Shown in pieces: positions 20,232 to 54,914 of a stretch of 64,000 bases of DNA. Below the pieces are notes generated by a model, which saw only the letters and a list, made by a program, of their open reading frames with translations, had not been told where the DNA came from and searched no databases. The first letter of the stretch is position 1; the number at the start of each line of letters is the position of its first letter. A program made the translations under genes and the position numbers. This stretch comes from a virus (lineage: Duplodnaviria > Caudoviricetes): the IMG/VR virus record IMGVR_UViG_3300012983_000031, positions 156,296 through 220,295 of that record. One strand, given 5' to 3'.

Positions 20232-20471
20232 CACAGGCGAACGGCACAAACACATAATAACTGGATGATCGATTTCTCGATCATCTTTTTTTGTTCAATG
20301 GCAGAATCGGCATGGGGTGCCACCCTGTCGGTAATGTCAATGACATTACCAGACCTTCATCCCGTCGTCTTGGTTCGCTCTGGAGTTCGACAAAAAAACA
20401 AAAAGTCCGATCCTGTCATCACGACAGAACCGAACCACAAAATCTAAATACTAACTAAATTATCTAACCGA

Positions 20472-20927
20472 TTATTTTATCTTTACGAACTTTAACGTGT
20501 CGGAAACGTATTCACCATATTCATTCAGGTAATATGTCGATCCCTTTGGAATGATGCAATCGCAAATGAAATCATTCGCCATTGCCATCATCAGATAATG
20601 TTCCTTCATGTTATCATCAACTGTACAAAAACCATCACAATTACGAACTATCTTTTTGCATGAGTGAATACCGTAATTAATTTTATACTTTTTTTCGATC
20701 GGATTTTCAGGATAAATGTAATGGGGATAAATGTAATTGTCGTATGGATACTTGTAACTTTCCTCTGGAGTTTCAAGATAAGATGTGTTTGGCAAACTTT
20801 TCTTCCATTTATATGTACCGAAACATGGAGAAACCAAACCATAACTTGTACGGTGTAGAACCTTCTGCACCTTGATGTTCCTTTCAGCAACCTGTTTGAC
20901 AGGCTTGTTTTTTGTAACCCAACACAT
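20472..20927 (-). CDS. Hypothetical phage protein, MCW...IPKGS.YY family (paralog 1)
   Basis: Shares MCW, V.KVL, SP, GxHS, IC...IPKGS.YY.NE.GEYVS with 24988 and 25549. Confidence 0.8.
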   Translation of the reverse strand: MCWVTKNKPVKQVAERNIKVQKVLHRTSYGLVSPCFGTYKWKKSLPNTSYLETPEESYKYPYDNYIYPHYIYPENPIEKKYKINYGIHSCKKIVRNCDGFCTVDDNMKEHYLMMAMANDFICDCIIPKGSTYYLNEYGEYVSDTLKFVKIK

Positions 20928-23262: not shown

Positions 23263-23718
23263 TTATTTCTTTTTGTCAAACATTCTTTTTGCAATCCTGT
23301 TCATTTCAGCATAAGTCATTGAAGGTTTACCTTCCATCCTGAAATGCTCACCCTTGCCGTAATGTGGCGGAATGAGTTCGATGTGTTTAGCCTCCAATTC
23401 AAGCATCCTGCTTAAGCACCAGAGAATGACACCCATATCGAACGAAACATTATACAGGCATACATAATGATCATGCACCTCCGAATAAAAGGATGAAAGG
23501 GGCTTCTTGGCGTACCATGTGTTCTTAATTTCATCCTTAAGTTCGTCGTTTATCATATCGACAACTTTCAACATCATGTTCGCAATCTCATGTTCGCTGC
23601 CAGAAACCCAGCCGTAAACCTGACCGAAAAGATAACCGAGATCGCTAACTACATCCGTTCGCTTGTACCATCCCTTTGCATACAGGATGATGTCATTGTA
23701 TGGAAAATTCTTTATCAT
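23263..23718 (-). CDS. Hypothetical protein
   Basis: Promoter -7 at 23764-23771 and leader. Confidence 0.75.
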   Translation of the reverse strand: MIKNFPYNDIILYAKGWYKRTDVVSDLGYLFGQVYGWVSGSEHEIANMMLKVVDMINDELKDEIKNTWYAKKPLSSFYSEVHDHYVCLYNVSFDMGVILWCLSRMLELEAKHIELIPPHYGKGEHFRMEGKPSMTYAEMNRIAKRMFDKKK

Positions 23719-23821
23719 AACTGTTTTTGTTTTTGTTGGTTTGTACTTTATTTAATTGTTATGCAAAGTTACGAACTCCATCCGTAACAACCAAATAATT
23801 TTAGTTAAATGATGTTAATCG

Positions 23822-23907
23822 GATCAAAAAAGTTCGACCATGTCATCACGACAGAGCCGAACCAAAATAACAATCTTCAATTAATCATTAAAAATGGTCT
23901 ATACATG
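23822..23907 (-). ncRNA. Candidate small RNA (gene-less promoter-terminator unit)
   Basis: -7 element 23910-23917, ~45-nt U-rich body, GTGA-loop terminator 23826-23862; at most a 9-codon ORF. Confidence 0.6.
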
Positions 23908-24152
23908 TGCAAAGGTACGAACTTATTTTGAATCCGCCAAATAAATCAGGTTAAAATACGTTAAAGGAATATCATTTTCGTTACACTACGAAAATGGTCT
24001 GCGGGACAAAGTAATGTCATTGACATTACCGAACTCCTGCGGAAGGCGCACCATGTTGTCTGGAGTTCCTTATCGCACATAAAAAAGTTCGGCTACCTTC
24101 ACAGGCAACCGAACACAATTATTTAATTTCAAATAATAATGTACACAAATTC

Positions 24153-24987: not shown

Positions 24988-25542
24988 TTAAATGATGTTA
25001 ACCTTCATCTTTTTCTTGTACCATTTAAGCCAGTAGTTAATCGTATCATCAAACAAACTGTATGGTAATGTCGCTTTTTTCACCAACGAACGCCCGTAGT
25101 TGTTCTCTGGATCGTTGACTCCCAAGAACACAATCCTGTCAGAAACATATTCGCCGCATTCATTCATGTAATATGTCGATCCCTTCGGTATGACGAAATC
25201 ACAAATGAAATCATTATTTTCACATGAAAACATCATCACTTCATGCTCGCCATTCTTCGTGCTGCTCACGAACTTTGTATCTGTGCCGTAAGTTTTGCAA
25301 ACCTTTCTTTCAATATGTGCTGCGCTGTGAAAGCCGCCATCTATGCCTAACTTAATGTCGCTACGATCTACATATCGGATGTTTTCAGTTCGCACCTCAC
25401 CGACATACCAATTAAATGTTGAATATACAGGTGATGTTAAAAACTTTGAAAATTTGTTCAAAGTTAACACTTTCTTCACCATGATATTCTTCTTCGCAAA
25501 ATGCGGAACTGTATGTTTTGTCTTGTTTGTTATCCAGCACAT
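24988..25542 (-). CDS. MCW...IPKGS.YY family (paralog 2)
   Basis: Motifs shared with 20472 and 25549. Confidence 0.8.
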   Translation of the reverse strand: MCWITNKTKHTVPHFAKKNIMVKKVLTLNKFSKFLTSPVYSTFNWYVGEVRTENIRYVDRSDIKLGIDGGFHSAAHIERKVCKTYGTDTKFVSSTKNGEHEVMMFSCENNDFICDFVIPKGSTYYMNECGEYVSDRIVFLGVNDPENNYGRSLVKKATLPYSLFDDTINYWLKWYKKKMKVNII

Positions 25543-25548
25543 AATAAT

Positions 25549-26037
25549 TTATTTTTTGTGTAACACATTCTTCAAAATATGATCAATAAGATAATCATCA
25601 GCATAACGAATATCCACATGAACATCAGTGAACGTAATCTGGTTGGAAACGTAGCCGCCATATTCGTTAATGTAATATTCCGATCCCTTCGGTATAACGA
25701 ACGAACAAATAACATCCGAATACATTTTTCTGAACAAATAATCTTTGTTTCCTTTTTTGTTTACCTGATAAAAAGAATATATTCCTTGATCGGATAGGTG
25801 AACCTGAATTTCATGTGCACTATGGAATCCCTTATCAATGCAGTAGTTTCCATTTTCACTGTATATGCCACCTATTTTTGTTTTCTTCGTTTCACCTATT
25901 TTCCATCTGCAATCTACAACTGGTGATGAAAACGAATGACTTTTTATGTTATATTGAAGAACCTTCTTTACAGATATGTCTTCATCAGCGACATGCTTAA
26001 TGGGTATGCCGTTTAGTTTGTCAGTAGCCCAACACAT
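25549..26037 (-). CDS. MCW...IPKGS.YY family (paralog 3)
   Basis: Motifs shared with 20472 and 24988. Confidence 0.8.
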   Translation of the reverse strand: MCWATDKLNGIPIKHVADEDISVKKVLQYNIKSHSFSSPVVDCRWKIGETKKTKIGGIYSENGNYCIDKGFHSAHEIQVHLSDQGIYSFYQVNKKGNKDYLFRKMYSDVICSFVIPKGSEYYINEYGGYVSNQITFTDVHVDIRYADDYLIDHILKNVLHKK

Positions 26038-26515: not shown

Positions 26516-26596
26516 AATAAAAATAGGATCGAACCTGTTTCACAACAGACTCGACCCGTCAAAAAATCTAATAATTTAATACCATGAAAAACACGT
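26516..26596 (-). ncRNA. Candidate small RNA (gene-less promoter-terminator unit)
   Basis: -7 element 26599-26606, body UUUUCAUGGUAUUAAAUUAUUAGAUUUUUUG, GTGA-loop terminator 26525-26557. Confidence 0.6.
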
Positions 26597-26870
26597 TGCA
26601 AAGTTACAATTTTTCCATGAAATAAAAAATAGGAAAATCCCTATTTCTTTTTCCAAAATAAAATTCAGTAAATTTTACAAAAATAAATTTACAAAAATTC
26701 ACAAAAACGAACTACAACCGCTGGCGTTCGTCATCAGTAATGTCAATGACATTACCAAACACCGCACCCGCGCTTTCACATTCGTTAACATATTCAATCA
26801 GGCACATAAAAAGGGATCGACCCCAAACAGGATCGACCCCCAGACCATGAGCGAAATATATCACACTTTA

Positions 26871-54351: not shown

Positions 54352-54447
54352 AAAAAATCAGCGGCTACCCTCACGAGCAACCGCTGACAAAAAATGTTGA
54401 TATGAGCAAAATAAAAATCCCTTAATTCATTATTCTTTTTAATTGTG
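54352..54447 (-). ncRNA. Candidate small RNA (gene-less promoter-terminator unit)
   Basis: -7 element 54451-54458; only ATG-AAT-TAA mini-ORF; body GGGAUUUUUAUUUUGCUCAUAUCAACAUUUUUUG; GTGA-loop terminator 54358-54387. Confidence 0.6.
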
Positions 54448-54914
54448 ATACAAAGTTACGGATTTCCTATGACATATACAAGAAAAACACAAACGAAATT
54501 AAGGTCATTAACAAACTTTAACGCACAGCATTGACCACCGAAATCTTCAGATGCCCGACAGCAGGTAATGTCAGTGACATTACTCAGCTCTCAGTTTCGA
54601 GTTGATTTCCATCACCGATTTCTCGTAAAAAACTTCCAAGAAAATCTCGGAAAAAAATCAAAAAAGTTTCAAGAAAAATTTCCAAGAAAAAAATGGAAAA
54701 ATTCATGCGGAAAAATCCAAAGTAATGTCGCTGACATTAAACGCTGGAAAGTATAGCAGAAGTCACTGTCCAAGCAAACAGAACGCAACAGGAGGTAATG
54801 TCGCTGACATTACAAGACGACCGAATAGGGCGGATACTAATCCGTCCTTACACAAAAAATGGGATTGCCCCTTGCGGAACAATCCCACGAAACAATTCTT
54901 ACATATATGAAAAC

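Follow-up and report, generated by a model that had tools for sequence, protein, structure and literature searches.

A promoter–terminator cassette without a reading frame in a jumbo phage with Bacteroidota-type promoters: a candidate gene for a small non-coding RNA

In the pR'-6S RNA-tR' unit of phage lambda, genes are directly preceded by a constitutive promoter that drives a short, terminated RNA. Phages of the T4 type have regulatory cassettes known as PeSLs, for promoter-early stem-loops (Arbiol et al. 2010, PMC2839356; Comeau et al. 2014, PMC4122927). Phage-encoded trans-acting sRNAs have also been described, such as PreS/LPR1 of lambda (bioRxiv 10.1101/2024.10.31.621285), and phage-derived sRNAs have been reviewed (PMC12197685). 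In Bacteroides, the sRNA FopS combines a single-stranded 5' seed with a Rho-independent terminator; it is made from canonical promoters, RbpB binds to it, and the translation starts of susC are repressed by it (PMC11697453). A FopS sequence has already been noted in a Caudovirales phage (Ruttiger et al. 2025, PMC11697453).

The locus described here, cassette 1, belongs to a large phage of gut Bacteroidales that is uncultured, and lies in a window of 64,000 nt (bases 156296–220295 of a 220-kb IMG/VR record, CheckV completeness 60%). It consists of a promoter and a terminator that frame no gene of ordinary size. We read it, tentatively, as a stand-alone gene for a non-coding RNA of ~83 nt without known relatives, although sequence alone cannot decide between a small regulatory RNA gene and the scar of a lost gene.

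Architecture of the region and of cassette 1

From about 8.7 to 56 kb of the window, nearly every gene forms its own cassette, in the order Bacteroidota-type promoter, A-rich leader, ORF, T-rich 3' UTR, and GC-rich hairpin with a T-run. The promoter elements are TTTG at –33 and TAnnTTTG at –7. A search for TTTG-N17-23-TAnnTTTG gave 48 matches in the window, versus 4.65 ± 1.9 expected (all shuffles ≤9); 46 of these are promoters of the repeated modules, the other two being chance matches outside modules. The whole 220-kb record holds 61 matches, nearly all within 160–215 kb, and the same pattern found no plus-strand promoter between 19287 and 44767. The two boxes belong to an extended promoter module of ~65 bp, GATCC-TTAAC-N5-TTTAAC-NAAAATAA-TTTGG-N17-CGTAACTTTGCA, and module families are 60–92% identical; the module promoter usually lies 25–480 nt 3' of a GC-rich hairpin with a T-run.

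The function of the flanking genes is mostly unassigned by Pfam or PHROG, and no tRNA or tmRNA was found in the window. Three minus-strand genes of phrog_13450 (20472–20927, 24988–25542 and 25549–26037) are paralogous and have in common a 90-nt block with 69–82% identity, which is evidence for cassette duplication within the region. The terminators of the phage resemble those of the host, including the GUGA-type loops of FopS terminators. In one host terminator (L067; G353:C4:207689–207731), the loop and the core of the stem, CCTGTCGTGATGAC, are identical to those of the terminator of cassette 1 (T2) and of the one at 20405.

An initial annotation had seen in cassette 1, on the minus strand, a promoter with TTTGG at –33 and a –7 box, followed by a hairpin and a T6 run, and all these coordinates and sequences proved correct (Table 1). 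The promoter module, P1, stands exactly where the promoter of the next cassette is expected, and it is the sole one of the 46 module promoters that is not followed by an A-rich leader and an ORF. What lies between P1 and T2 is ~45 nt of unique U-rich sequence, the body, beginning at about 23908: similarity to other promoter modules stops near +3, and similarity to terminator modules begins 6 nt before the stem. The first 40 transcribed nucleotides have the lowest A content (0.35) and the highest T content (0.42) of the 46 promoters; the leaders of the other 45 cassettes are A-rich, 19–78 nt long and devoid of a Shine-Dalgarno sequence. The module of the next gene, P2, adjoins the T-run of T2, six bases on from the hairpin, with no spacer or palindrome between them.

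On the other side of P1, the spacer that separates it from the terminator of the upstream gene (T1) contains a 19-bp palindrome that recurs genome-wide. This spacer is also crossed by a 39-aa ORF; it aligns with other spacers, in which indels break that ORF, and is therefore non-coding. A 40-aa plus-strand ORF gave no Pfam match. The KH-like protein encoded upstream may be an RNA-binding protein, here located beside a candidate RNA gene.

The annotation had also allowed a single, nine-codon ORF, and indeed no other ORF fits between P1 and T2; none of 30 aa or more begins before P2. It would be very surprising if this were a micro-protein gene, with the peptide MYRPFLMIN translated from a nearly leaderless mRNA. 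The ATG lies 2–4 nt from the start site expected for P1, but each of the other 45 cassettes has the leader described above, no similar peptide is encoded elsewhere in the genome, and nine codons easily arise by chance. The micro-ORF is probably not a gene.

Table 1. Features of cassette 1 and its surroundings, and of a third ORF-less cassette (window coordinates)
Feature	Position	Strand	Details
Upstream KH-like gene, 132 aa	24153–24551	–	KH_2 near threshold: E = 3.8e-4, 20.7 bits vs cut-off 22
Terminator T1 of the 132-aa KH-like gene	24081–24114	–	hairpin 24114–24087 + T6, –19.1 kcal/mol
Inter-cassette spacer, ordinary	23972–24080	–	19-bp palindrome GTAATGTCAATGACATTAC at 24030–24012; small hairpin 23996–23973
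39-aa ORF across the T1–P1 spacer	24080–23961	–	not conserved in paralogous spacers; no Pfam match
Promoter module P1	23910–23971	–	TTAAC boxes 23964–23960 and 23955–23950
P1 core boxes	23941–23937 (–33); 23917–23910 (–7)	–	TTTGG (–33); TACCTTTG (–7)
Predicted transcript, ~83 nt	23826–23908	–	start A23908 or A23906, from promoter geometry; end in T-run
Micro-ORF MYRPFLMIN + stop, nine codons	ATG 23906 to TGA 23877	–	nearly leaderless
Predicted stem-loop SL1, AU-rich	23869–23899	–	RNA nt 10–40, 12 pairs incl. 3 G-U
Terminator T2	23826–23863	–	hairpin GGTTCGGCTCTGTCGTGATGACATGGTCGAACT 23863–23831, 13 pairs, one 1x1 internal loop; T6 23831–23826
Promoter module P2 of next gene	23764–23825	–	begins GATCCG-ATTAAC; –33 23795–23791, –7 23771–23764
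Downstream gene, 151 aa, function unassigned	23263–23718	–	typical A-rich leader, 45 nt
Third ORF-less cassette	54358–54465	–	one-mismatch promoter CTTG...TAACTTTG

Integrity of the signals, predicted fold and competing readings

With a leave-one-out matrix P1 scored 53 bits (rank 25 of 35), inside the range of the gene-driving promoters, and no high-information position has been lost, nor has either TTAAC box, the –33 box or the –7 box. Compared with P26458, its nearest paralogue, it differs at 3 of 32 core positions and at 9 of 24 positions of the less informative upstream part. Such a pattern, with the upstream part diverged and the core kept, suggests a promoter that still serves a gene, here one whose product would be the RNA.

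T2 is 88% identical to its nearest paralogue, the terminator at 20405–20449. The hairpins differ at four positions: two make up a compensatory change from U-A to C-G, one turns U-G into U-A, and one breaks a pair. The compensatory change and the replacement of G-U by A-U are likewise consistent with an RNA gene, in which the RNA would be under selection.

The stability of T2 (–14.6 to –16.7 kcal/mol, with one internal mismatch) places it among the weaker terminators here, most of which reach –17 to –24 kcal/mol; T2 abuts P2, so that read-through would enter the 151-aa gene. P1 and a leaky T2 might then act in cis on that gene, as a tandem promoter combined with an attenuator or insulator: transcription reading through T2, perhaps helped by a phage antiterminator as in the pR'-6S RNA-tR' unit of lambda, would supplement that from P2 or set its timing. 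We regard this as highly doubtful. The 151-aa gene has a full promoter of its own, no other full module promoter in the 220 kb is stacked in this way on the promoter of the next gene, and the 45-nt body shows no alternative antiterminator pairing with the stem of T2 in the fold. Moreover, the other RNA cassette that is placed so tightly (cassette 2, below) has a seed of the trans-acting (FopS) type.

The 83-nt predicted RNA (23908–23826) folds with a free energy of –23.5 kcal/mol (z = –3.7). Its 5' end stays free for 9 nt; there follow SL1, an AU-rich hairpin of 12 pairs (nt 10–40), a U-rich linker of 5 nt and the terminator. SL1 alone reaches –6.8 kcal/mol, versus –3.1 ± 1.6 kcal/mol for shuffles (p = 0.027), and because its pairing requires G-U it is limited to the minus-strand RNA (opposite strand, –1.3 kcal/mol). 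This predicted strand-specific hairpin would favour an RNA gene. The same may be said of the exact module limits of the unique sequence, of the lack of any A-rich leader remnant, and of a U-rich start like that of the FopS-like RNA of cassette 2.

The initial annotation had named, as its own alternative, a cassette that lost its gene. In such a scar, an illegitimate deletion would have removed the ORF and brought the promoter up against what had been the 3' UTR and terminator of the gene; the short RNA would still be made, but without function. Accessory cassettes are shuffled in this hyperplastic region, whose gene order is unlike that of relatives, and the body matches the 3' UTRs of this phage in composition and length (25–55 nt, T 0.4–0.55), with stops in all three frames (TAATGATTAATTGA). 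In addition, P26458 heads an operon with phrog_13450 paralogues and the paralogue of T2 ends another such gene, as if P1 and T2 had once framed a phrog_13450 gene.

However, recombination between modules deletes a gene cleanly and leaves no empty cassette (PeSL model, PMC2839356). An illegitimate deletion, on the other hand, must have begun within ~5 nt of the transcription start, leaving no trace of the A-rich leader; judging from leader lengths, we estimate that this applies to about 1 in 10 of the deletions leaving so short a remnant. A scar also has to accommodate a promoter and a hairpin that are intact despite 10–15% divergence from their nearest paralogues, as well as the strand-specific hairpin of the body. 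Comparison within the genome detected no coding remnant in cassette 1, be it a C-terminal peptide of a lost gene or the C-terminus of a paralogue. The 3' UTR-like body and the three-frame stops keep the scar under consideration, as a possible but rather unlikely origin of cassette 1.

The annotation had further proposed that the RNA itself is the product. The intact signals, the exact module limits, the hairpin and the FopS-like layout speak for this, and we retain it with some reserve, as the tentative reading stated at the outset. In such a non-coding RNA gene, host RNA polymerase would start at the host-type P1, alongside ~45 early gene cassettes, and the transcript would expose a 9-nt single-stranded 5' end, followed by the AU-rich stem-loop and the U-rich linker, before transcription stops at T2. 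By analogy with the FopS-like cassette, the RNA may act in trans, its 5' part (with CAU at nt 2–4 and 13–15) pairing with the translation-start region of an mRNA, probably one of the host. Like the genes here, cassette 1 probably arrived by recombination between the promoter modules that now flank 'body + terminator'. As to its synthesis, we infer that an RNA of ~80 nt is probably made under every reading listed, a dead promoter excepted.

A FopS-like neighbour, relatives and targets

Cassette 2 (26594–26517, minus strand; region 26517–26625) matched the Rfam FopS family RF04319 with 37.4 bits (E = 5e-4), below the gathering score of 56, yet its first 18 nt are exactly those of the consensus seed. 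The 21-nt FopS seed itself occurs exactly at 25 loci of Bacteroidales genomes, rumen ones included. Given this seed and the RF04319 match, the phage therefore has at least one credible sRNA gene.

The terminator of cassette 2 adjoins P26458, the nearest paralogue of P1. The two cassettes, 2.7 kb apart, have the same layout, namely a terminator, a palindrome spacer, a promoter, a U-rich RNA of ~80 nt, a terminator and then, at once, the promoter module of the next gene. The tight junction of terminator and promoter (≤40 nt, no palindrome) is found in both RNA cassettes (2/2), as against 3 of ~27 other terminators. This match in layout lends support, by analogy, to an RNA gene in cassette 1.

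Cassette 1 itself stands outside the FopS family because the seed test failed: the seed R1/R1' (positions 1–21, GUGUUUUUCAUGGUAUUAGAU) was not found in it, and its 5' end reads ACAUGUAUAGACCAUUUUUAA. The RF04319 covariance model gave no match at E ≤ 10 in a 161-nt search over cassette 1, and a FopS HMM (nhmmer) gave none at E ≤ 100. The terminator and the length of ~83 nt do fit FopS, but a hairpin is predicted at nt 10–40 (–6.8 kcal/mol). Body nt 18–38 (TTAATGATTAATTGAAGATTG) aligned with the post-seed stretch of host FopS with a local score of 23 versus 15.1 ± 2.3 (p = 0.008), the best value when compared with 50 natural pre-terminator controls. When a covariance model was built from the body and terminator of FopS, cassette 1 obtained 14.5 bits and rank 5, and several ordinary gene terminators scored higher. 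The local alignment had suggested a FopS scaffold, but neither the HMM nor the purpose-built covariance model singled cassette 1 out. The weak post-seed resemblance, which we count for an RNA gene, is not specific.

We surveyed the 220-kb record for intergenic –7 boxes with a strong terminator no more than 130 nt further on; this census yielded three ORF-less cassettes: cassette 1, 26606–26517 and 54458–54358. The last retains a piece of typical A-rich leader (20 nt) and then reads ATG-AAT-TAA; a T-rich sequence and a strong terminator (–22.3 kcal/mol) follow, and a truncated gene is a more natural reading there than for cassette 1. It indicates that truncations occur in the region, which is a point for a scar at cassette 1 as well.

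Rfam searches with cassette 1 gave a best E of 0.5. This match, to the L20 leader, is spurious, being produced by the AU-rich stretch and the terminator, and so are the miRNA and snoRNA matches. No homologue of cassette 1 was found in GenBank phages, and the exact 22-mer of the body was absent from 185,579 species genomes. When the 85-nt unit (the predicted RNA with the two preceding bases) was searched by BLAST in 401 Bacteroidales genomes, 147 genomes had matches at E ≤ 0.1, nearly all of them on the AT-rich nt 16–48. The reversed sequence matched in 94 of the 401 genomes with an equal best score; the apparent enrichment is barely above this control, and we dismissed these apparent host homologues as low-complexity background. 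Twenty-three matches covered the CAU, among them two apparent M-V-Y gene starts, which turned out to be inside long ORFs, and one genuine start, that of infA.

The body had been described as antisense to an ATG at 23894. That ATG is real; it is, however, simply the complement of the CAU at RNA nt 13–15, on a strand without a promoter. The broader antisense model put forward with it fared no better than chance. Against the 357 translation starts of the phage itself, the best duplex had –19.4 kcal/mol, no better than the –21.3 ± 2.4 kcal/mol of shuffled bodies, and complementarity in the sample of 401 Bacteroidales genomes was at background.

Host target prediction, suggested as a check, also stayed at background in this sample, with a single match at chance level. 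In 1 of the 401 genomes, RNA nt 12–29 are perfectly complementary (18 nt) to the map–infA junction and the infA start codon, TTAATCATTAAAAATGGC (L161; G219:C11:3381–3398); two family mates match at 16/18, and about three exact 18-mers are expected in that search space. Neither the phage translation starts nor the sample of 401 Bacteroidales genomes contained a target whose complementarity exceeded chance. As a lead, translation starts of the host, the map–infA junction for example, might be a class of target for the RNA.

The downstream 151-aa gene has homologues with 64–99% identity (proteins P0001–P0011, ENA/Logan). Two short JGI metagenome contigs (L013 and L015), with 64–68% protein identity, have an unrelated ordinary ORF, ORF X, directly upstream of the homologue of this gene, and the cassette is missing there; cassette 1 is therefore not old at this position. 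ORF X has no homologue in this phage genome. The gene order differs between the phage and these contigs, which are short and without modules.

Searches of IMG/VR with the flanking proteins, protein alignment, a 663-aa protein and exact DNA patterns returned only relatives at 33–45%, organised differently, or nothing. Two complete distant relatives are similar to the promoter part only and not to the RNA body. A looser promoter pattern matched mostly unrelated 12-kb elements in IMG/VR. Among these, ~70 contigs of ~12 kb (L075–L148, mostly from sample 3300045988) carry the same extended promoter-plus-leader module near one or both ends, in inverted orientation, the copies having 73–78% identity over 100–120 nt. 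To judge from their appearance, these contigs are small linear elements of one family, bounded by terminal inverted repeats, and have their promoter type in common with the jumbo phage.

We count against an RNA gene the lack of a homologue and of a target in these searches, the 3' UTR-like composition of the body and the absence of the cassette from the 64–68% relatives. A scar would suit an RNA for which the searches returned no homologue or target, and relatives in which an unrelated ORF stands beside the 151-aa gene.

Comparison with known systems

If the RNA is functional, a lytic-type jumbo phage of gut or rumen Bacteroidales would have at least two independently transcribed regulatory RNAs, one copying a host family (FopS-like) and one, that of cassette 1, without known relatives. 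The phage sRNAs known so far come mainly from temperate coliphages, and riboregulation in Bacteroidota runs without Hfq. PeSL-like promoter/terminator modules could then hold RNA payloads besides ORFs. If cassette 1 is a scar, it would be a small and ordinary by-product of cassette turnover, and a warning that a promoter and a terminator without an ORF are insufficient to call an sRNA in such regions.

A more general proposal is that the phage holds host-style regulatory RNAs on an interchangeable chassis (a host promoter, a 40-nt payload and a host-type terminator, just before a gene promoter), with the canonical FopS seed in one copy and a new seed in cassette 1, and that payloads against host mRNAs are swapped by the module recombination that shuffles genes. 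We offer this as a speculation and consider it distinctly unlikely.

With the pR'-6S RNA-tR' unit of lambda, cassette 1 has in common a short terminated RNA directly 5' of genes. It differs in that the downstream gene has its own promoter, and neither an antiterminator nor a qut-like site is known here.

The likeness to PeSLs extends over the whole region, where a composite of terminator stem-loop, AT-rich upstream element and strong host-type early promoter is repeated dozens of times. As with PeSLs, these modules lie in hyperplastic intergenic spaces between small genes of unassigned function, keep the genes transcriptionally separate from one another and provide homology through which genes could be inserted, deleted or shuffled. 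The order promoter module, body plus terminator, promoter module is the one expected from integration of a small circle by recombination within the promoter module. By analogy, the modules may work like PeSL cassettes with a Bacteroidota promoter type. Their promoter is of the Bacteroidota type (–33/–7) and not a sigma-70 promoter, they also have the 19-bp palindrome, and a promoter plus terminator without a gene is present here whereas PeSL–PeSL recombination does not yield that. No match to the T4 superfamily marker Gp23 (Pfam PF07068) was obtained in the 220-kb record (60% complete), and a signal was lacking from the control genomes too.

Like trans-acting sRNAs of the lambda PreS/LPR1 type, the RNA of cassette 1 would be a short transcript of the phage, bounded by a promoter and an intrinsic terminator of its own and lacking an ORF, for which we propose regulation of host mRNAs by base pairing. 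Those sRNAs are measured transcripts with validated targets, mostly from temperate coliphages, whereas cassette 1 is known from its sequence, and the host of this phage has no Hfq.

The comparison with the FopS and GibS sRNAs of Bacteroides (RF04319 and RF04182; PMC11697453) is the most detailed. The defining 5' seed of FopS, GUGUUUUUCAUGGUAUUA, is missing from cassette 1, and the 5' part of cassette 1 holds the predicted 12-pair hairpin and is thus not fully single-stranded. On the other hand, a length of ~70–80 nt, a canonical TTTG/TAnnTTTG promoter, a U-rich 5' part with CAU and a single Rho-independent terminator with a GUGA-type loop are common to both. In terms of these features, cassette 1 is built along the general lines of FopS/GibS-type Bacteroides sRNAs and of trans-acting phage sRNAs of the lambda PreS/LPR1 type.
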